Shown: positions 12,276 through 30,984, numbered from the stretch's first letter. The stretch is 32,000 nucleotides of DNA from Trichlorobacter lovleyi SZ (GCF_000020385.1 NC_010814.1:2370001-2402000); one strand, 5' to 3'. Program-made: numbers and translations. Notes: generated by a model not told the origin, from the sequence alone.

Positions 12276-12487
12276 AATAAGCTCAATCCTTTCACGCTGA
12301 AACATCAAGGAATACGATATAGCACACCCCACAAGCCAGGCACCAGCAGAATCCTGCACAATCCAACGGACTTTCAGCAAAGAGTGTGTACATTTTTTTA
12401 CTATTGTGCTACAAAAACTCTGTTTATCGTCATCATGGGCTGCATATTCAGCAGCACATATCTGCCTTAAGGAGAAGCATCAACCCT

Positions 12488-14542
12488 ATGAAGTCAAGAA
12501 AATACCCGATTTCCCACGCTCTGACATCGTTTAATCATACCACGGTAGCACCAGTGGAAGCTCCGGCCCCTATCAGTGTCAAGAGCCCCGCAAAAGTCCA
12601 CCGTCTGCCCTCTTCGATCTGGAAGAAGATGGAGGGCAGCGCAGGCAATCCTTTGGATAAGGCCGTTGAACTGACCCGCGACTTCTTTTTCCGGGAGCAA
12701 TTGCCGGATGGTTACTGGTGGGCAGAGCTTGAATCAAACGTCACCATTACGGCAGAGTACATCATGCTGTTCCACTTCCTTGGCATGGTTGACAAGGACA
12801 AAGAGCGCAAGATGGCCAACTATCTGCTGCGCCAGCAGACTGAAGAAGGCTACTGGACGGTCTGGCACAACGGACCGGGTGACCTTTCCACCACCATTGA
12901 AGCCTACTTCGCCCTGAAGCTGGCCGGCTATCATGCTGATCACATTGCCCTGCGTAAAGCCCGCGACTTTATCCTGGCCAATGGCGGCATCCTGAAGTCA
13001 CGGGTTTTCACCAAAACGTTTCTGGCCATGTTCGGTGAGTTCTCCTGGCTGGGGGTTCCCTCCATGCCGATCGAGCTGATGCTGTTGCCTGACTGGGCCT
13101 ACCTGAATGTCTATGAATTCTCCAGCTGGGCCCGTGCCACCATCATCCCGATGTCTGTGTTAATGGCCAATCGTCCGGTCTATAAACTACCGCCCCATGC
13201 ACGGGTGCAGGAGCTGTACGTGCGTCCGCCCCGGCCCACCGATTACACCTTTACCAAGGAAGACGGCATCTTCTCCCTGAAGAACTTCTTTATCGGTGTA
13301 GATCACCTGCTCAAGATCTACGAATCAAGCCCGATCCGCCCTTTCAAGAAGCGGGCAACCGAAAAGGTGGAACAATGGATACTTGAACACCAGGAGAAAA
13401 CCGGTGACTGGGGCGGCATCCAGCCCGCCATGCTGAACGCCATCCTGGCGCTGCACTGCCTGGGCTATGCCAATGACCATCCGGCCGTGGCAAAAGGCTT
13501 GGAGGCCCTGGCCAATTTTACGATTGAAGACAGTGACTCCTTGGTGCTGCAATCATGCATCTCACCGGTCTGGGATACGGCACTGGTGCTGCAAGCCATG
13601 CAGGAGGCCAGTGTTCCTTTGGATCACCCGTCTCTGATCAAGGCGTCCCAGTGGCTGCTCGATCGTGAGGTACGGATCAAGGGCGACTGGAAGATTAAAT
13701 CACCTGATCTGGAACCTGGCGGCTGGGCCTTTGAATTTCAGAACGACTGGTACCCCGACGTGGACGACTCGACAGCCGTGATGATCGCTATCAAGGATAT
13801 CAAAGTCAAGAACACCAAAGCCCGTCAGGATGCCATCCGGCGCGGCATTGACTGGTGTCTGGGGATGCAGAGCGAAAACGGCGGCTGGGCAGCCTTTGAC
13901 AAAGACAACACCAAGCATATGCTGAACAAGATCCCGTTTGCTGATCTGGAGGCATTGATCGACCCCCCTACTGCTGATCTGACCGGGAGGATGCTGGAGC
14001 TGATGGGCAATTTTGGCTACACCAAAGACCATCCCCAGGCAGTCAGCGCCCTGGAGTTTCTAAAAAACGAACAGGAGCCGGAGGGCCCCTGGTTCGGCAG
14101 ATGGGGCGTCAACTACATTTACGGCACGTGGTATGTGTTGATCGGGCTGGAGGCGATCGGCGAGGACATGAACAGCCCCTATATCAAGAAGTCGGTCAAC
14201 TGGATCAAGTCCCGGCAGAACCTGGATGGAGGTTGGGGTGAAGTCTGTGATTCCTACTGGGACCGCACCCTGATGGGCTGCGGCCCCAGCACCGCCTCCC
14301 AGACATCCTGGGCCCTGATGGCCCTGATGGCCGCCGGTGAGGTCGGCTGCCAGGCGGTTGAGCGGGGGATTCAGTATCTACTGGCCACCCAGAACAGTGA
14401 CGGCACCTGGGATGAAGAGGCATTTACCGGCACCGGTTTCCCCAAGTATTTCATGATCAAGTACCATATTTATCGCAACTGCTTCCCGCTGACCGCCTTG
14501 GGCAGATATCGCCGGCTGACGGCGGGGACGCACGCACAGTAA
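12488..14542 (+). CDS. shc: Squalene-hopene cyclase
   Basis: Multiple QW repeats, the DVDDS(T)A catalytic aspartate motif and GGWGE repeats. Start chosen at ATG 12488, which follows AAGGAG. The track ORF begins at 12386. Confidence 0.9.
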   Translation: MKSRKYPISHALTSFNHTTVAPVEAPAPISVKSPAKVHRLPSSIWKKMEGSAGNPLDKAVELTRDFFFREQLPDGYWWAELESNVTITAEYIMLFHFLGMVDKDKERKMANYLLRQQTEEGYWTVWHNGPGDLSTTIEAYFALKLAGYHADHIALRKARDFILANGGILKSRVFTKTFLAMFGEFSWLGVPSMPIELMLLPDWAYLNVYEFSSWARATIIPMSVLMANRPVYKLPPHARVQELYVRPPRPTDYTFTKEDGIFSLKNFFIGVDHLLKIYESSPIRPFKKRATEKVEQWILEHQEKTGDWGGIQPAMLNAILALHCLGYANDHPAVAKGLEALANFTIEDSDSLVLQSCISPVWDTALVLQAMQEASVPLDHPSLIKASQWLLDREVRIKGDWKIKSPDLEPGGWAFEFQNDWYPDVDDSTAVMIAIKDIKVKNTKARQDAIRRGIDWCLGMQSENGGWAAFDKDNTKHMLNKIPFADLEALIDPPTADLTGRMLELMGNFGYTKDHPQAVSALEFLKNEQEPEGPWFGRWGVNYIYGTWYVLIGLEAIGEDMNSPYIKKSVNWIKSRQNLDGGWGEVCDSYWDRTLMGCGPSTASQTSWALMALMAAGEVGCQAVERGIQYLLATQNSDGTWDEEAFTGTGFPKYFMIKYHIYRNCFPLTALGRYRRLTAGTHAQ

Positions 14543-14571
14543 CAACCAGCCGCAGTAACAGCCACGTACGG

Positions 14572-14604
14572 GAAGCCCCGCTGTTGCAAGACGGGGCTTT
14601 TCCC
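14572..14604 (+). terminator. Weak terminator/attenuator-like hairpin between shc and hpnA
   Basis: GAAGCCCCG (14572-14580) / CGGGGCTTT (14592-14600), followed by only a short T tract (TTTTCCC). Confidence 0.35.
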
Positions 14605-14627
14605 ATTCTGGAGAGACGAGACAGACC

Positions 14628-15617
14628 ATGAAGGCTTTTGTCACCGGCGCCACCGGCTTTATCGGCGCCAGTATAGTGCGGGAACTGTTGAAGGATGGCC
14701 ACAGAGTTGCGGCACTGGTCAGGAACGGATCTGATACCGCCAACCTTCAGGGGCTTGACGTCACCATCCTGCGGGGTGATCTGCATGACCAACAGCAGCT
14801 TGAGCAGGGCATGGCCGGCTGCGATTGGGCCTTTCATGCTGCTGCCGATTACCGGCTCTGGTGTCCTGAACCACAAGCCATGTACCATGCCAATGTGGAT
14901 GGCACCCGTACCCTGTTGGCTGCAGCACTTGCTAGCGGTGTGACACGGGTGGTGTACACCAGCAGTGTCGGCACCCTGGGCAACCCCGGCAATGGCACGC
15001 CAGGCACGGAAGAGACACCGGTCAGCCTGACCGACATGGTGGGAGACTATAAAAAGAGTAAGTTTCTGGCAGAGCGGGAAGCGGAAAAATTCGTTGACAA
15101 GGGTCTTGGCCTGATTATAGTCAACCCTTCCACCCCGGTGGGGCCGTTTGACATCAAACCAACCCCTACCGGCAAGATCATTGTGGATTTTTTGAACCGC
15201 AAGATGCCGGCCTACCTTGATACCGGCCTGAATCTGATCGCCGTGGAAGACTGCGCCCGAGGCCATATCCTGGCAGCGGAAAAAGGACGGATCGGCCAGA
15301 AATACATCCTTGGCAACCGGGATCTCACCCTGCGGGATATCTTCGGCATGCTTGAGCAGCTGACCGGCCTTGCAGCCCCCAGGGTGCGTCTGCCCTACAC
15401 GCCGATCCTGCTGGCTGCCTATGTAAACGAGGCAGTTTCACGGCTGACCGGCAGAGAACCGCTGATTCCGTTGGCCGGTGTCCAGATGGCAAAGAAATTC
15501 ATGTTTTTCGATGCATCCAAGGCAGTGCATGAACTGGGGCTTCCCCAGACTCCGGTAGAAGAGGCACTTAAGCGGGCTGTTGACTGGTTCCGTTTCAATG
15601 GCTATGCCTCTGCATAA
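14628..15617 (+). CDS. hpnA: Hopanoid-associated NAD-dependent sugar epimerase HpnA
   Basis: Rossmann motif [20 protein letters not shown] extended-family layout, and position between shc and hpnH. Confidence 0.8.
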
Positions 15618-15627
15618 GGAAACCGTT

Positions 15628-17496
15628 ATGTTACTTGAAACCATACAGAACCCTGCTGACCTGAAAAAGCTGACACCGGAACAACTCCCGGATTTGGCTG
15701 AAGAAATCCGCTCTTTTCTGCTCTCAACCGTATCGGAAACCGGTGGACACCTGGGGTCAAACCTTGGTGCGGTCGAGCTGTCCCTGGCCCTGCATTACTG
15801 TTTTAGCACCCCGCAGGACAAGATTGTCTGGGATGTTGGTCACCAGGCATACACCCACAAGCTGTTGACCGGACGCCGGGATCGCTTTGCCACCCAACGC
15901 CAGTACAAAGGGATATCCGGCTTCCCCAAACGGTGCGAATCAGAACATGATGCCTTTGGCGTGGGGCACGCATCCACCTCCATCTCCGCTGCCCTGGGCA
16001 TGGCGGTTGCCGACAACCTGGATCAGAAGAAGAATAATGTGATTGCCGTGATCGGCGACGGTTCCCTGACCGGCGGCATCGCCTTTGAAGGCCTGAACCA
16101 GGCCGGCCACCTCAAGAAAAATCTGATTGTGGTGCTGAACGACAACGAGATGTCCATCTCCAAGAACGTCGGTGCCTTTTCCGCCTTTGTCTCCCGTAAG
16201 ATGACCACCCGTCATTTCCGTGAATTGAAAAAGGAGATGAAGGAACTGCTGACCAGCATCCCGGCCTTTGGCAAGGATATCCTTAAGTTTGCCCGTCGCG
16301 CTGAAAACTCTCTCAAAGGTTTTTTGACCCCTGGCGCGCTGTTTGAGGCCCTGGGGTTTGACTACATCGGTCCGATTGACGGCCATGACCTGCCCGGCCT
16401 GATTGAAGTCTTCAATAATGCCCGTGAGTTTGACGGCCCGCTGCTGCTGCATGTCATGACCACCAAGGGCAAGGGCTACCGTCCGGCTGAAGAGACACCG
16501 GACAAATTCCACGGTGTAGGTGCCTTTGATCTCTCCACCGGCAAAGCACCGGCCAAGTCATCCACGATTTCCTACACTGAAGTCTTTGGACGCACCCTGG
16601 TTGATCTGGCCAAGGAAGATCCAAAAGTTGTCGCCATCACCGCTGCCATGCCGGACGGTACCGGTCTGAACTTCTTTAGCGATGCCCTGCCGGACCGTTT
16701 CTTTGATGTGGGTATTGCAGAGCAGCACGGCATCTGTTTTGCCGCTGGACTGGCTGCTGACGGCTTCAAGCCGGTGGCAGCGATCTACTCATCCTTCATG
16801 CAGCGGGCCTATGACCAGGTCTTCCATGATGTCTGCCTGCAGAACCTGCCGGTGGTAATCGCCATGGATCGCGCTGGACTGGTGGGTGATGATGGCCCCA
16901 CCCACCACGGCGTGTTTGACCTCTCATTCATGCGCCACCTGCCGGGCCTTACTTTTATGGCCCCCAAGGATGAAAATGAACTACGCCACATGCTCAAAAC
17001 CGCACTGGAACTGAAGGCCCCGGTGGCCCTGCGCTACCCCCGTGGAGCAGGCTATGGCGTGCCCCTGGATAAAAAAATGGAATGCCTGCCTATCGGCAAA
17101 GGTGAGCTGCTGCGGGAAGGCACTGACCTGACCATTGTTGCCATTGGTTCAACAGTCATGCCTGCGGTCAAGGCAGCTGAACAGCTTGCAGAGCAGGGAA
17201 TCAGCGCCGGTGTCGTAAATGCCCGTTTCATCAAGCCGCTGGATGCCGATCTGATCCTTGGTCAGGCCAGGGCAACCGGCAGGATTGTAACGGTTGAAGA
17301 AAACGTCCTGCAGGGCGGCTTTGGCAGTGCCGTGCTTGAACTGCTGCAGGATAACGCTATGTCACAGGTCAAGGTCAAACGGCTTGGCATACCGGATCAG
17401 TACATTGAACAGGGAACCCAGGCACAACTCCGTAAGGATGTGGGGATTGATGCTGATGGTATAGCAGCTGCAGTACAGGCGTTTCTGAAGAATTGA
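15628..17496 (+). CDS. dxs: 1-deoxy-D-xylulose-5-phosphate synthase
   Basis: Dxs sequence from [15 protein letters not shown], including [12 protein letters not shown], the ThDP motif GDGSLTGG...NDN and a transketolase-like C-terminus. ATG 15628 follows AAGGA, just after the hpnA stop. Confidence 0.92.
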
Positions 17497-17509
17497 AAGG
17501 ATTGATTAC

Positions 17510-18511
17510 ATGCGTTTCCCCTGGCGTTTGAACTATGATTTGACCAAGTACATCATCAAAAACAACCTCAACAAGGTTGAGAAGTACCCGCTGGTATTGA
17601 TGCTGGAACCGACCCACCTCTGTAACCTGACCTGCTCCGGCTGTGGTCGTATCCGCGAGTATGCCAACACCATCAACGACATGATGTCGCTGGACGACTG
17701 CCTGAAGTCGGTTGATGAATGTCCGGCACCGGTGGTTACCATTACCGGTGGGGAGCCGTTTCTGTACCCCCATATTTATGAGTTGGTACAGGGGATACTG
17801 GACCGTGGCCGTCACATCATGTTTTGTACCAATGCCGTACTGATGGAAGAATCCATCAAAAAGATGCAGCCCCACCCCAACCTGACCTTTAACGTCCATA
17901 TGGATGGCCTGGAGCAGACCCACGACCGTATTCTGGAGCGCAAAGGCTGCTTCAAGACCGGTATGGCAGCGATCAAGGCAGCCAAGGCAAAGGGGTTCAG
18001 GGTCTGCACCAACACCACCATCTTCACCGACACCGATCTGGTGGAGATTGAGATGCTGTTCCAGCAGCTGGAAGAACTGGGAGTTGACGGTATCCTGGTG
18101 GCACCCGGCTTCAGCTATGAAGCGGTTGAAGAGGAAAAACAGTTCCTGGTCCGCCTGGAGATTGAAAAGAAGTTCCGTCAGGTCTATGAGATGAGCAAGA
18201 AGCACCGCTTCTGGTCCACCCCGATGTACCTGCGGTTCCTGAAGGGTGAGAAAAAACTGCAATGCACCCCCTGGGGCAACCCGACCCGCAACCCCCAGGG
18301 CTGGAAGGCCCCTTGCTACCTGATCACCGACGGTCACTACCCCACCTTCAAAGAGATGATGGAGCAGGTCAACTGGGATAGCTACGGCGTGGGCAAAGAC
18401 CCCCGTTGTGCCCAGTGCATGATGCACTGCGGCTTTGAACCGACGGTTGTGACTGAAGTAGGCAAAAGCCCCAAAGACATTCTTGAAATGATGCTCTGGA
18501 ACCTGTCATAA
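17510..18511 (+). CDS. hpnH: Adenosylhopane synthase HpnH (hopanoid-associated radical SAM)
   Basis: YPLVLMLEPTHLCNLTCSGCGRIREY is the HpnH-type CxxxCxxC context. 333 aa, in a hopanoid gene neighbourhood. Confidence 0.85.
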   Translation: MRFPWRLNYDLTKYIIKNNLNKVEKYPLVLMLEPTHLCNLTCSGCGRIREYANTINDMMSLDDCLKSVDECPAPVVTITGGEPFLYPHIYELVQGILDRGRHIMFCTNAVLMEESIKKMQPHPNLTFNVHMDGLEQTHDRILERKGCFKTGMAAIKAAKAKGFRVCTNTTIFTDTDLVEIEMLFQQLEELGVDGILVAPGFSYEAVEEEKQFLVRLEIEKKFRQVYEMSKKHRFWSTPMYLRFLKGEKKLQCTPWGNPTRNPQGWKAPCYLITDGHYPTFKEMMEQVNWDSYGVGKDPRCAQCMMHCGFEPTVVTEVGKSPKDILEMMLWNLS

Positions 18512-18538
18512 AAACACGATCTCGTGACGTAACCCACC

Positions 18539-18919
18539 ATGAAAAACCTCCTTCTGTATCTTCTGTTCATACTGGCCATGACCGCTTTCTGCCCCCATCA
18601 GGCAGAGGCGGTCCAGCCTCGTACCCCTCAGTTGCTCTACCCTTCAAGTAAACGGATTGTCATCTTTGTAGCTGATGGCTGAGGCTACTGTACCAAGGCG
18701 GAAAGTTATTTCGCCACACGCAATATCCCGTTTGAATCAAGAGACATTCAAAAGAGCCACCAGTTCTACCGTGAATGGCATGACCATTTTAACGGCGATA
18801 TTGTACCGCTGATCGTGTTTGATAACGGCAGGCAGGTGGTTGACAGCTTTGACCCACGGGCCATCAAACGGGCACTGAAGGTCATCGGTATTACCTCCAG
18901 AAACGGGAAGAAACCATAA
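18539..18919 (+). CDS. Secreted glutaredoxin/NrdH-fold protein with in-frame UGA (putative selenocysteine, U48) in a U-G-Y-C redox motif
   Basis: Manual translation: MKNLLLYLLFILAMTAFCPHQAEA|VQPRTPQLLYPSSKRIVIFVADG-U-GYCTKAESYFATRNIPFESRDIQKSHQFYREWHDHFNGDIVPLIVFDNGRQVVDSFDPRAIKRALKVIGITSRNGKKP*. The TGA at 18680-18682 sits where Grx has the first Cys of CxxC. The frame stays open for 78 further codons, with the cis-Pro (VP) and the beta-strand pattern of the Grx fold. Confidence 0.75.
18697..18715 (+). promoter_or_regulatory. SECIS-like hairpin downstream of the in-frame UGA
   Basis: GGCG-G-AAA / GUUA loop / UUUCGCC gives a 7 bp stem with one bulged G. The apical loop starts with GU. The stem begins 14 nt after the UGA and the loop 22 nt after it. 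Confidence 0.55.
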
Positions 18920-18920
18920 C

Positions 18921-20294
18921 ATGCCAACCATTATTGATACCCACTGCCATATTTACTACGATGATTTCAAGCTCGACTGGGATCAGATGCTTGAACGGGC
19001 CGAAACAGCCGGTGTCAAAGGAATGATTGTGGTTGGCGCTGATGCAGTATCCAGCCAACAGGCAGTTGAGATAGCTGCCAGTCACCCCACCATCTTCTGC
19101 ACCGTGGGTATCCATCCCCATGATGCCCAAGGGGTTGATGAAGCCACTATCACAGCACTGGAGGAGTTGGCACGGACCACTCCAAAGTGTGTGGCCATTG
19201 GCGAGATCGGCCTGGACTTTTTCAAAAACCGTTCTCCCCGTGAAGATCAGGAACGGGTCTTCAAGCGCTTTCTGCAGATGGCAAAAAAACTGGATAAGCC
19301 GGTGGTGATCCATGACCGGGATGCCCATGCAGAAACCCTGGCCATGATCAAGGAGGCCGGTGTTACCAAGGGTGTGATGCACTGCTTTTCCGGTGATCTG
19401 GCCTTTGCCCGGCAATGCCTTGAGCAGGGCCTGTACCTCTCCATACCCGGCACCGTCACCTACCCTTCCAATCAGCAGTTGCGGGAGGTGGTCCGTAACG
19501 TACCGCTGGAGCGCCTGTTGCTAGAGACTGATTGCCCTTATCTCTCGCCGGTGCCTCACCGTGGCAAGCGTAATGAACCGGCCTACACCCGTATTACTGC
19601 AGAAAAGGTGGCGGAACTGCGCGGGCTGACCGTTGAGGATGTGGGACGGATCACCACCATGAACGCCGGTCGCCTGTTTGGTATCCCGCTCTGGGATGAA
19701 TCAACCAAGATCGCCTACCGGATCCGCAACTCGCTCTATCTGAACATCACCAACCGCTGTTCAAACCACTGTACCTTTTGTGCCAAATTTGACGAGTTTA
19801 CCGTTAAAGGGCATAATCTGCTGCTGGACCATGAACCGGGCTTTGAAGAGGTGATGGCAGCCATTGGTCAGCCAAAAGATATTGATGAGGTGGTATTCTG
19901 CGGCTTTGGGGAATCACTGCTGCGGCTGGATTTGGTTAAGCAGGTGGCGCAGGCACTGAAACAGCGGGGCTACCCGATCAGGATCAACAGTGATGGTCAG
20001 GCCAACCTGGCCCACGGACGCAACATCCTGCCTGAACTGGCCGGACTGGTTGACAGCATCTCCATCAGTCTTAATGCAGCTGATGCAGTAACCTACGGCA
20101 AGCTCTGCAACACACCCTTTGGTGAAGCAGGCTGGCAAGGGGTCTGCGACTTCCTGCGGGAAGCGCCCCGCTATATCCCGGATGTAACCGCTACTGCGGT
20201 CACGGTCCCCGGCATTGATATTGAGGCCTGCCGCAGAGTAGCTGAGGAGCTGGGGGTGAAGTTCAGGGTGCGGGAGTACGCTGAAGTAGGGTAG
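18921..20294 (+). CDS. Fusion protein: TatD-family metal-dependent hydrolase (N) + TatD-associated radical SAM domain (C)
   Basis: N-terminus: IIDTHCHIYYDD...GIHPHDA...IGEIGLDF...HDRDAH...HCFSG...ETDCPYL (TatD). C-terminus: LNITNRCSNHCTFCAKF (CxxxCxxC at 19758-19781), with a short rSAM core of the kind normally encoded next to tatD. Confidence 0.8.
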   Translation: MPTIIDTHCHIYYDDFKLDWDQMLERAETAGVKGMIVVGADAVSSQQAVEIAASHPTIFCTVGIHPHDAQGVDEATITALEELARTTPKCVAIGEIGLDFFKNRSPREDQERVFKRFLQMAKKLDKPVVIHDRDAHAETLAMIKEAGVTKGVMHCFSGDLAFARQCLEQGLYLSIPGTVTYPSNQQLREVVRNVPLERLLLETDCPYLSPVPHRGKRNEPAYTRITAEKVAELRGLTVEDVGRITTMNAGRLFGIPLWDESTKIAYRIRNSLYLNITNRCSNHCTFCAKFDEFTVKGHNLLLDHEPGFEEVMAAIGQPKDIDEVVFCGFGESLLRLDLVKQVAQALKQRGYPIRINSDGQANLAHGRNILPELAGLVDSISISLNAADAVTYGKLCNTPFGEAGWQGVCDFLREAPRYIPDVTATAVTVPGIDIEACRRVAEELGVKFRVREYAEVG

Positions 20295-20296
20295 CG

Positions 20297-20749
20297 TTAC
20301 TCCCTGTCTGCCTGATGTTCCTCATAGATCCGCTTCAGATAGGTGTGTGAAACGGTTTTCTTAAACTCTTTCTTGAAGTGATCCGACAACTGCCGCCAGG
20401 ACAGTTTTTCCTCTTCCCGCAACCTGACCAGTTCATCCAGATAGTTTTTCTCCAAGGCTGCCCGCAGCCGCTTTTTGTACGGTTTATGTTCCCGGACCGG
20501 CTGCGTCACCTGCGGTGCCTGCTCTATCCAGATCTGTTTCAAAACCGCCAGGAAGGCAGCATAGCCGGCCTCTCCCCCCCGGCTGGGGGCAACCCTGCCC
20601 AGGGCAAGCCACTCCTTGAACAGCTCCCGTTGCCGGCGATGTACCTCCACCCTCAGCTCTTCATCAAGCCGGGCATACAGTTCACCCAGCGCGACACGTT
20701 GTTCAGCGGTCAGACCGGTCAGTATTTCTATGGAGCGATGATCGGTCAT
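20297..20749 (-). CDS. Hypothetical 150 aa protein, helical and charged, with a possible C-terminal HTH
   Basis: The ORF lies 5 nt downstream of the DUF350 gene on the same strand. No motif recognised apart from an HTH-like tail (LSWRQLSDHFKKEFKKTVSHTYLKRIY). Confidence 0.55.
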   Translation of the reverse strand: MTDHRSIEILTGLTAEQRVALGELYARLDEELRVEVHRRQRELFKEWLALGRVAPSRGGEAGYAAFLAVLKQIWIEQAPQVTQPVREHKPYKKRLRAALEKNYLDELVRLREEEKLSWRQLSDHFKKEFKKTVSHTYLKRIYEEHQADRE

Positions 20750-20754
20750 GGGGG

Positions 20755-21168
20755 CTAGTAGGTCATGCTGGCTGCATTCAACAGGCCGATGGCCACCGAG
20801 AAGAAGGCCAGCAGTGTGGCAGAAGCAACCTGATTATCTTCAATCTGCTTAACCAGATCCTTGAAAATGCCCCGAACAGCAGAGAATACAAGGATCTGCA
20901 CCACCATGGCCACCAGGGCCCAGGTCAGCATGTCCAGAAAACCGACACTGTGGGTGATGGCACTGTGCAGCGGCAGTACAAAGCCGATAAAGGCACCACC
21001 AAAACTGATGGCAGGGGCGGTTTTGCCTTCCCGTACCAGTTTCAGCTCATCATAGGGGGTAACTTTGCAGTAGATAGCGCAGAACACCAGCAGAAAGCCC
21101 AGCGCTGCCACAAAATACTTGGCAAAATCAATCAATCCTTGAAAAGAGTCCAGTTGCAGTCCGTTCAT
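20755..21168 (-). CDS. DUF350 (YjfL-like) integral membrane protein
   Basis: 137 aa with four hydrophobic helices and the DUF350-type segment VTPYDELKLVREGKTAPAISFGGAFIGFVLPL. Confidence 0.75.
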   Translation of the reverse strand: MNGLQLDSFQGLIDFAKYFVAALGFLLVFCAIYCKVTPYDELKLVREGKTAPAISFGGAFIGFVLPLHSAITHSVGFLDMLTWALVAMVVQILVFSAVRGIFKDLVKQIEDNQVASATLLAFFSVAIGLLNAASMTY

Positions 21169-21201
21169 GAGTAGCCTCCGTTAAGTCTGATACTGAATAA
21201 A

Positions 21202-22323
21202 TCAGGTAAAGTAATGGGGTAAAAACCGGCTGGCATTGGTGGTGACCAGTTGTCGATCCTCACGGATGCCGATACCTGCTGATTCGCCTGCCACAATCCA
21301 GGAACCGATCACTGGATAGTTACCGTCAAAGCAGGGAATGGCTGCCAGCTGCTGATAGACCAGTGCCTTACCGCCGTAGCTGCCTTCAACCTCATGCACC
21401 TGACCGTTGCGATGCACGGTCACGTTTTCACCTTCACGGGAAAGCAGCGGCTTGGTGACATAGTTGTCTCTGAACGGGCCTGCTTCAAAACCGGCCCGCA
21501 GCAGATTGTCGTGCCCTTCGAACAGCTCCCACATAATTGCCAGCAACCCCTTGTTGGAGAGCAGCATCTTCCAGGCCGGCTCAATCAACCGCATCCGGGC
21601 AGTTGCCAGTTTACGGCCAAAATACTCATTCACCAGCCACTCCCAGGGATACAGCTTGAACATGAGGTCAATCGGGCGGTCATCCAGATCAACATAGCGG
21701 CCTTCCACTTCTTCAAAACCGATATCGTTCATAAACAGCTGGGACGTAGTCAATCCGGCCTGGATGGCGGTATCCCGTAGATATTCAAGGTTGCCGAAAT
21801 CCTCCGGGGCATCAGCCACACAGGAAAAATGGACCGTTGACGTAATCCCCATCCCTTTCCATGCCTCAATCAGCCGTTCGTGGATCGAGTTAAACTGGTC
21901 GGCATCAGGGTAGAGATCCTTCAGCCAGAACCATTGGATCACGCTGGCTTCCAGCAGGGAGGTGGGAGTATCGGCATTGTATTCCAGCAGCTTGGGCGGC
22001 GTATGGCCATCGTAGGCCAGATCAAAACGGCCATACAGGGAAGGCTCATCCTTTTCCCAGGCATCAACGATCAGCGGAACTGCATGGGGCGGGATCTGCA
22101 GTTTGTCGAACAGGTCTTTGTCGATGACATGCTGGGCTGCCTCAATACAACGCTCCTGCAGCTCATTGGTGGCATCTTCCAGCAGATCAATCTCGGCGCT
22201 GTCAAACTGGTAACAGGCCGTCTCGTCCCAATACGGTTCATCATCAATGGTGTGGTACACCATCCCCTGGGACTCAACGGTCTGTTGCCAGTTTATACGG
22301 GGTGGACGACTGATCCGTTGCAT
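21202..22323 (-). CDS. Glutathionylspermidine synthase-like ATP-grasp protein (YjfC/YgiC family)
   Basis: 373 aa. YGRFDLAYDG...KLLEYNADTPTSLLE and the C-terminal GSWIVAGESAGIGIRED are typical of the GspS pre-ATP-grasp family. Confidence 0.8.
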   Translation of the reverse strand: MQRISRPPRINWQQTVESQGMVYHTIDDEPYWDETACYQFDSAEIDLLEDATNELQERCIEAAQHVIDKDLFDKLQIPPHAVPLIVDAWEKDEPSLYGRFDLAYDGHTPPKLLEYNADTPTSLLEASVIQWFWLKDLYPDADQFNSIHERLIEAWKGMGITSTVHFSCVADAPEDFGNLEYLRDTAIQAGLTTSQLFMNDIGFEEVEGRYVDLDDRPIDLMFKLYPWEWLVNEYFGRKLATARMRLIEPAWKMLLSNKGLLAIMWELFEGHDNLLRAGFEAGPFRDNYVTKPLLSREGENVTVHRNGQVHEVEGSYGGKALVYQQLAAIPCFDGNYPVIGSWIVAGESAGIGIREDRQLVTTNASRFLPHYFT

Positions 22324-29699: not shown

Positions 29700-29785
29700 G
29701 CCAGAGTGGTGAAATGGTAGACACAGCAGACTCAAAATCTGCCGAGGGCAACCTCATGCCGGTTCGAGTCCGGCCTCTGGTACCA
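29700..29785 (+). tRNA. tRNA-Leu (anticodon CAA), class II with a long variable arm and encoded CCA
   Basis: Acceptor GCCAGAG/CTCTGGT. Anticodon stem GCAGA/TCTGC with loop CU-CAA-AA. Long variable arm. T-arm GGTTCGAGTCC. Terminal ACCA. Confidence 0.93.
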
Positions 29786-29903: not shown

Positions 29904-30881
29904 CTAGGCAAGCCGGTCCAGCGGCGACATCACCCCCATCCCGCCCTTGTTCAGCACATGGGTATAAATCATCGTGGTCTGCACATCCTTGTGTCCCAGC
30001 AACTCCTGCACGGTACGGATATCATACCCCGCCTGCAGCAGATGGGTCGCAAAAGAATGCCGCAGGGTATGGGGCGTCACATTCTTGGTCAACCCCGCAT
30101 CAACCGCAGCCTGCTTGATCGCCCGCTGCAGCCCCTTTTCATCCAGATGATGCCGTCTGGTCACACCGGAACGGGGATCAACCGATAACCGCGCAGACGG
30201 AAAGACATACTGCCAGACCCACTCCCGCCCGGCATTGGGATACTTGCGGGCAACACTCTCAGACAGCCAGACCTCACCGTACCCCTTTAAAAGATCCTGC
30301 TCATGCGCCTGCTTTACCTGTTTCAGATGTTCCTGCAACGGCTTGAGCAATGACTGTGGCAGCATGGTCACCCGGTCTTTACCCCCCTTACCCTCCCGAA
30401 TCAGCAGCTCGGCTCTTTCAAAATCAAGATCCTGCACACGCAGCCGCAACCCCTCCAGCAAACGCATACCGGTACCGTACATCAGACGGGCCAACAAAGC
30501 ATAGGCCTGTGGCACATGGGCCAGCAGAGAATGCACCTCTTTCTCGGTCAGCACCACCGGCAACCGCTTCGGCTTTTTGGCCTGTTCCACCTCATCCAGC
30601 CAGGGCAACTGAATTTCAAGCACCTCTTTATACAGAAACTGCAGAGCTGCCTTGGCCTGATTCTGGGTGGCAGCCGCCACCTGCCGCTCAGTCGCCAGGT
30701 ACGTTAAAAACCCCTCAATTTCTTTCTTGCCCATCTCTTGCGGGTGCCGTTTATTGTGATACAGTATGTAACGCTTTGCCCAGTCAAGGTACACATCCTC
30801 AGTCCGGCGGCTGTAATGTTTCAACCTGATACGATCACGCAACTGGTCCAGCAACTTCGGCTTGGCAGATTGATTTTGCAT
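29904..30881 (-). CDS. intI: Integron integrase IntI (tyrosine recombinase)
   Basis: C-terminus is nearly IntI1-like ([52 protein letters not shown]). It contains the IntI-specific insertion [27 protein letters not shown]. Start taken at ATG 30881 (AGGGGA RBS); the track ORF extends to 30929. Confidence 0.9.
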
Positions 30882-30984
30882 GACGTTTTCCCCTTTATAT
30901 TTAGGACGTTTTTTATTTGTGTTAGGCAAATAATAACAGCTAATTGAGAAAAGTCACGCTACACAAACCGACAATTTGACGTTT

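Follow-up and report, generated by a model that had tools for sequence, protein, structure and literature searches.

What is encoded in the 409 nt that lie between hpnH and the gene for a TatD–radical SAM fusion protein in Trichlorobacter lovleyi SZ? In the window – the whole stretch of DNA that was analysed, 32,000 nt long (GCF_000020385.1 NC_010814.1:2370001-2402000) – the mechanical ORF list divides this gap into a 47-aa ORF (18539-18682) and short fragments. An earlier note had proposed, from the sequence alone, that the ORF track misses a gene here, one frame of the gap reading as a complete protein if an internal TGA codon is decoded as selenocysteine (Sec). The gap does have the length given there, its ends (18511 and 18921) agreeing with the limits of the neighbouring genes, and the list does split a continuous gene. 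This gene very probably encodes a Sec-containing, exported protein of the glutaredoxin (Grx) fold: the earlier observation is confirmed, and the interpretation placed on it is, with the corrections set out below, essentially right.

A glutaredoxin-fold frame with one internal TGA

The following features of the gene are referred to throughout.

18539..18919, + strand: gene for the predicted exported glutaredoxin-fold selenoprotein (translation; PF00462 match over the TGA; full-length orthologues; homology to WP_010943784.1)
18539..18610, + strand: predicted N-terminal export signal, composed of MK, the hydrophobic run LLLYLLFILAMTAFC and PHQ-AEA (hydropathy; architecture of the orthologues)
18680..18682, + strand: predicted Sec codon TGA, residue 48, the first of the U-G-Y-C motif at 18680-18691 (conserved in more than 25 distinct orthologues)
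18697..18715, + strand: putative bacterial SECIS-type hairpin GGCGGAA-AGUUA-UUUCGCC, 7 bp with a 5-nt loop (comparison among orthologues)
18806..18808, + strand: codon of Pro90 in the G-D-I-V-P motif, at the thioredoxin-fold cis-proline position before strand beta3 (alignments and model)

Translation of positions 18539-18919 (+) gives 126 codons, Sec included, and a stop, with the TGA at 18680-18682 as the sole internal stop. The frame reads MKNLLLYLLFILAMTAFCPHQAEA...VIFVADG up to this codon and GYCTKAESYF...IVPLIVFDNGRQVVDSFD...KKP beyond it; written out as a whole, it is MKNLLLYLLFILAMTAFCPHQAEAVQPRTPQLLYPSSKRIVIFVADG before the TGA and GYCTKAESYF...GDIVPLIVFDNGRQVVDSFDPRAIKRALKVIGITSRNGKKP after it. 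The 78 sense codons that follow the TGA match the count made in the earlier note, as does the position of the final stop (18917-18919), 1 nt ahead of the ATG of the TatD fusion at 18921.

The product is recognised as a glutaredoxin across the TGA. In profile and database searches, for which U was replaced by C, residues 40-95 – the TGA position among them – match the Pfam Glutaredoxin family PF00462 (E 6.7e-9), with 36.3 bits against a gathering cut-off of 22.9, and the domain requires both sides of the TGA. All NCBIfam scores stay below the respective cut-offs: the best similarity is to YruB (TIGR02196, 45.4 against 88.55), while Uxx-star (NF041212) scores 38.1 against 66 and NrdH (TIGR02194) 19.8 against 85.75. 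A scan of the window for other ORF–TGA–ORF arrangements gave no convincing candidate, the hits overlapping long ORFs in other frames or on the opposite strand.

The fold is glutaredoxin/NrdH-like, as had been read from the sequence. The AlphaFold (AF2) model of P0004, a database orthologue with Cys at the TGA column, has a mean pLDDT of 75.5, with a core above 85, and shows a hydrophobic helix at the N-terminus that a disordered linker joins to a canonical glutaredoxin domain. The topology is beta-alpha-beta-alpha-beta-beta-alpha (E41-45, H50-61, E67-70, H75-84, E92-95, E100-102, H107-117), and the redox motif starts helix 1. The G-D-I-V-P motif is invariant in both alignments that cover it (A1 and A3), and strand beta3 comes next in the model. 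The closest PDB structures found by Foldseek are NrdH-redoxins (4fiw, 4hs1, 1h75) and small dithiol glutaredoxins, including clostridial cGrx1.

Conservation of the TGA and the downstream hairpin

The database search with the U-to-C protein retrieved six relatives. Three (P0001-P0003) show W at the TGA column, their DNA having TGA, and are not reproduced by translation table 11; two are C-terminal fragments with a start called just past the TGA; and one, P0004 (loci L001/L002), has Cys, encoded by TGT, in the motif C-S-Y-C. In DNA, these relatives amount to five distinct TGA-bearing orthologues (contig families) and one TGT lineage. Among representative genomes, that of the cultured Trichlorobacter thiogenes ATCC BAA-34 and a Trichlorobacter MAG also contain the gene, again with TGA, and a metagenome scan gave 24 more loci (39-99% identity), with TGA in every locus that covers the column. 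All 23 complete metagenomic orthologues have the TGA, be it as U-G-Y-C, U-S-Y-C, U-G-F-C or U-P-Y-C, and stay in frame past it without further stops, down to 39% identity.

The comparison of this column that the earlier note had called for finds TGA in more than 25 distinct sequences, 39-99% identical, and Cys in one lineage. The placement of the TGA at the first redox position of a CxxC motif is borne out by the Cys of P0004 and by the U of the Geobacter sulfurreducens protein WP_010943784.1 at the same column, and wider signal-peptide Grx relatives carry CxxC. The Cys-lineage protein is closely related to the Sec forms, with 72% identity to that of locus L011 and 66-75% to two from Trichlorobacter.

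The hairpin begins 14 nt past the TGA, where the earlier note had placed it, with the stem formed by 18697-18703 and 18709-18715 around the loop AGUUA; the bulged base also described there is not found in the conserved helix. In an ungapped alignment of 23 distinct segments, each running for 48 nt from the UGA, the helix keeps the same offset in every Sec form (positions 18-24 and 30-36 counted from the UGA), and two loop bases are invariant: a G (position 26; 18705) and a U two bases on (position 28; 18707). Helix cells are paired in 99.4% of cases; sliding the 3' partner by 1-3 columns lowers this to 38-74%. Compensatory changes occur at two pairs – C-G to U-A in five sequences and A-U to G-C in three, with G-U intermediates present – and the observed covariation score was reached in none of 500 column shuffles. 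These changes probably reflect only about 2-3 independent events, and coding constraint could lie behind part of the hairpin conservation. The earlier note had asked whether the hairpin co-varies: in the Sec forms it is kept, with compensatory changes, and in the Cys form it is degraded, the region having diverged (GGCAGAAGGCUAUUUAACA), with four of the seven pairs left by hand count; this lineage appears to be a Sec-to-Cys reversal with a decayed hairpin.

The evidence for the hairpin comes from the comparison of orthologues, since a single-sequence fold of 18680-18740 is no better than shuffles (z = -0.19). A covariance search, also suggested in the earlier note, brought nothing: no Rfam SECIS family matched 18640-18780 even at E<=10, chance matches apart, and at gathering thresholds the only Rfam match in the window is tRNA-Leu. 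We read this miss as a lack of coverage of this hairpin type in Rfam, not as the absence of a SECIS. Bacterial SECIS elements have been described as stem-loops that lie immediately downstream of the UGA and whose apical loop carries a conserved G (PMC1794560, PMC2398784), a description that the putative element at 18697-18715 fits. That more than 25 distinct sequences have the TGA, the flanking stretches and the hairpin in common goes far beyond chance.

These observations bear on three other accounts of the locus. According to RefSeq, it encodes a 47-aa hypothetical protein that ends at the TGA, the other 237 nt being non-coding or the decayed remnant of a glutaredoxin. Exact RefSeq products exist in T. 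lovleyi (WP_153304677.1, 'hypothetical protein [Trichlorobacter lovleyi]') and in T. thiogenes (WP_153304315.1, likewise a 47-aa 'hypothetical protein'), and other gene callers stop at the TGA or leave the gap empty. The first of these stubs, however, is identical to the first 47 residues of the full-length protein, residue for residue, so RefSeq cuts the gene at the TGA. The sequence downstream is under strong purifying selection, with a dN/dS of 0.04-0.33 over 65 codons past the TGA and synonymous sites near saturation, which rules out both a pseudogene – a possibility that the earlier note had raised – and a 47-aa product; moreover, it stays open in more than 25 distinct orthologues, the Pfam Grx domain takes in both halves, and the Cys-coding orthologue is continuous across the column. 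All this leaves the short product with hardly any probability. Less still can be granted to a reassigned code that gives TGA a sense meaning (Trp or Gly, tables 4 or 25), the W of P0001-P0003 notwithstanding: TGA terminates many solid genes of the window, namely those for DXS, a sigma-54 activator, nitrilase-like, AOR-like and CheV-like proteins and a 1216-aa protein, and the W entries fail re-translation under table 11. Since TGA otherwise serves these genomes as an ordinary stop, the W is most likely a product of the gene caller's translation table, apparently one with TGA as Trp.

The third account accepts that the UGA is passed and dispenses with selenium: a standard tRNA (near-cognate Trp, Cys or Arg) would read it, or low-level stochastic readthrough would occur, with the hairpin slowing termination. 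The Rfam result would suit this account, as would the searches for Sec-decoding genes. Neither selA, selB, selC nor selD was found in the window or in 41 related loci, nor tRNA-Sec in the window or in 23 related loci, and tblastn with Escherichia coli SelA, SelB and SelD and with the 'G. lovleyi' small selenoprotein gave no match in the window and related loci. Against it, the UGA occupies the nucleophilic position of CxxC and alternates with Cys, the classical Sec/Cys signature; the hairpin has the position and the apical-loop G of bacterial SECIS elements; and catalogues list the G. sulfurreducens orthologue as a selenoprotein. Readthrough by an ordinary tRNA is therefore a very improbable account, and Sec insertion is the preferred one.

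Sec use in T. lovleyi has indirect support, by analogy, from the Sec trait of Geobacter and from a selenoprotein family named 'predicted in Geobacter lovleyi' (PMC12013277). A search of the literature on 'Geobacter lovleyi' or Trichlorobacter selenoproteins found nothing useful, and a search with G. sulfurreducens SelD showed no Trichlorobacter label among the best 120 of 7,308 matches. The Geobacter-like SelD entries (P0161-P0280) are themselves mostly 300-320 aa long, spanning only 86-91% of the 345 residues of G. sulfurreducens SelD; their starts appear to lie just past the N-terminal Sec of that protein, as if Sec-containing SelD were systematically cut by gene callers.

If the gene is decoded in this way, the UGA at 18680-18682 would not be read as a stop during translation. 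The hairpin at 18697-18715 in the mRNA would act as a bacterial SECIS, recruiting SelB-GTP with Sec-tRNA(Sec) to the ribosome; Sec would be inserted at the UGA, and translation would go on for 78 codons. The N-terminal signal, of the Sec type, would then export the protein across the cytoplasmic membrane, and the mature form of approximately 11 kDa, with the active site Sec-Gly-Tyr-Cys, would serve as a periplasmic selenol/thiol-disulfide oxidoreductase.

Family membership and predicted export

Selenoproteins of this kind have been catalogued before. 'Glutaredoxin (Grx), pfam00462, UxxC, WP_010943784.1' is listed among the previously reported prokaryotic selenoprotein families (PMC12013277 Table S1; PMC9312934 family table), the sequence of WP_010943784.1 is included among the known selenoproteins of G. 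sulfurreducens PL (PMC12013277 Data S1), and a glutaredoxin forms part of the G. sulfurreducens selenoproteome (PMC1794560). BLASTP aligns the window protein with WP_010943784.1 over 112 residues (39% identity, E 2e-30), position 48 falling on U, that is, Sec on Sec. This homology runs end to end and makes the window protein a member of the catalogued family rather than of a new class; as judged from the alignment, it is the Trichlorobacter orthologue of the G. sulfurreducens 'Grx' selenoprotein. The novelty implied in the earlier note was therefore overstated, a UxxC Grx with a signal peptide being already on record.

The G. sulfurreducens protein has a signal peptide, the active-site stretch VVIFVGEG-U-PYC and REWRERYGGEIVP. 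Common to both proteins are a hydrophobic N-terminus predicted to be a signal, the UxxC motif, a core of the form REW...G(D/E)IVP and a C-terminal helix of the form D-x-x-A-I-x-R-A-L. They differ in the active site – U-P-Y-C in G. sulfurreducens, U-G-Y-C in the window protein – and their overall identity is only 39%. Two metagenomic sequences (L031 and L036) bridge the two, being 54% identical to WP_010943784.1 and 45-51% to the window protein.

The cytosolic cGrx1 of Clostridium and Alkaliphilus (PDB 7c10, 4tr0) has the same fold and UxxC chemistry (Foldseek E ~2e-4, TM 0.74 on the target), and a clostridial glutaredoxin selenoprotein has been reported (Kim et al. 2011, cited in PMC9312934). 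A clostridial-type Grx selenoprotein (PMC12013277 Data S1), which may or may not be cGrx1, is only 18% identical to the window protein, shorter (81 aa) and devoid of a signal peptide, so its location and partners presumably differ. NrdH-redoxins and YruB-type proteins (TIGR02194, TIGR02196) are structural and profile neighbours that score far under the cut-offs; they are cytoplasmic, with Cys and no export signal.

The N-terminus of the window protein has the marks of an export signal: K2, a 15-residue hydrophobic core and A-E-A ahead of V25, with a mean Kyte–Doolittle hydropathy of 2.59 for residues 4-18 and of -1.1 for residues 25-39. The signal peptide proposed in the earlier note has its counterpart in the orthologues, in which this architecture is kept while its sequence drifts, and this shared hydrophobic N-terminus leads us to infer that the protein is exported and its redox domain placed outside the cytoplasm. 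Cleavage by signal peptidase I is predicted after AEA. A lipoprotein reading of the window protein was considered and rejected, Cys18 being not conserved and not preceded by a lipobox. The most distant orthologues have lipobox-like LLGC or PAGC in place of AxA: in the Sec-type UPYC/USYC loci L031-L036 (e.g. L032 1479-1910 and L034 2815-3300), the N-termini contain LLGC, PAGC or TAGC, which suggests lipoprotein anchoring in these lineages.

That export is compatible with Sec insertion is illustrated by MccSep of Geobacter, a periplasmic selenoprotein with a signal peptide that has been experimentally confirmed (PMC13510729). The G. sulfurreducens MccSep has what is predicted here for the window protein, a signal peptide, a periplasmic destination and a UGA followed by a downstream SECIS-like stem-loop (PMC13510729); the protein itself is unrelated, being a multiheme cytochrome c polysulfide reductase, and serves as an analogy for export only.

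Genomic neighbourhood and annotation

The genes discussed in this section are the following.

12386-14542, + strand: squalene-hopene-cyclase-like ORF (DVDD motif, by eye)
14628-15617, + strand: HpnA-like NAD-dependent epimerase (hopanoid cluster)
15580-17496, + strand: DXS (hopanoid/isoprenoid cluster)
17510..18511, + strand: hpnH, adenosyl-hopene transferase (NCBIfam TIGR03470, 485 bits)
18921..20294, + strand: fusion of TatD hydrolase and TatD-associated radical SAM protein (TIGR00010, 288 bits; TIGR04038, 283 bits)
29700-29785: tRNA-Leu(CAA), ahead of a 341-aa ORF on the opposite strand

The Grx gene starts 27 nt past the end of hpnH, and the gap between hpnH and the TatD–radical SAM gene contains no promoter-like or terminator-like site. 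The short spacings and the lack of such sites are consistent with co-transcription, which on this evidence is likely for hpnH and the Grx gene and would extend to the TatD–radical SAM gene as well. No Shine–Dalgarno sequence is evident, by inspection, in the 27 nt before the ATG at 18539 (18512-18538; ...cgtgacgtaacccaccATG); coupling to hpnH or a leaderless-like mechanism of initiation are possibilities.

In the clade, it is the downstream neighbour that is constant. The TatD–radical SAM fusion lies 1-57 nt past the Grx gene in every clade locus that extends far enough, and it is by far the more conserved of the two, with 78-99.6% amino acid identity (L001-L030 against the window) compared with about 50-99% for the Grx gene. 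The upstream neighbour varies by lineage, being hpnH, dUTPase, HrpB-C or others. As it is not constant, a functional tie to hopanoid synthesis was rejected; the hopanoid/isoprenoid cluster of the window (12386-18511, +) has the selenoprotein gene at its 3' end in Trichlorobacter only. The UPYC/USYC loci L031-L036 are without the fusion gene and adjoin genes for MCP chemoreceptors or PAS histidine kinases, so the linkage of Grx and TatD–radical SAM genes is clade-specific, and common descent may account for it as much as function does. That a periplasmic redox protein and a cytoplasmic TatD–radical SAM enzyme should be linked in function is possible but unsupported. It is, in our estimate, rather unlikely that the U-G-(Y/F)-C clade represents a functionally distinct exported selenol oxidoreductase with its expression coupled to the downstream fusion; if true, this would tie a periplasmic selenoprotein to the TatD-associated radical SAM system (TIGR04038), a connection that has gone unrecognised.

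Two further stretches of the window may be mentioned in passing. On the 3' side of the fusion gene, 20297-22323 (-) encodes three proteins that form a conserved group: one of 150 aa without a family, one with similarity to glutathionylspermidine synthase (PF03738) and a DUF350 membrane protein. The DUF350 protein recurs in L003 (4501-5376) beside a small protein, giving the neighbourhood a flavour of thiol metabolism. Further on, the 341-aa ORF at 29904-30929, opposite in strand to tRNA-Leu, has the C-terminal motifs ...GH...TMIYTHV and may be tyrosine recombinase/integrase-like, possibly marking the boundary of a genomic island.

The earlier note had considered such a gene easy to miss in annotation, and the databases bear this out: beside the RefSeq stubs, other callers give fragments or nothing at all. 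Where contigs share an identical downstream gene, the gap is without any gene call, and the entries P0001-P0003, P0005-P0007, P0011-P0015, P0020 and P0022 are artefact forms of three kinds: N-terminal stubs of 47 or 48 aa, C-terminal fragments starting from a GTG or ATG inside the hairpin, and full-length proteins with W at the Sec position. Annotation pipelines may miss the gene because no NCBIfam model reaches its cut-off, and the same error probably runs systematically through Geobacteraceae genomes and metagenomes.

What is new here is local, and no new kind of system is revealed: it consists in the RefSeq stubs and in the place of the gene directly upstream of the TatD–radical SAM fusion across a Geobacteraceae-like clade. 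An annotation error is corrected, in that T. lovleyi and T. thiogenes would have a 126-residue exported selenoprotein where RefSeq has a 47-aa hypothetical protein. With more than 25 Sec forms and one apparent Sec-to-Cys reversal with a decayed hairpin, the family also offers a natural data set for the evolution of bacterial SECIS elements, and the selenoproteome of an organohalide-respiring bacterium very probably gains one more selenoprotein.
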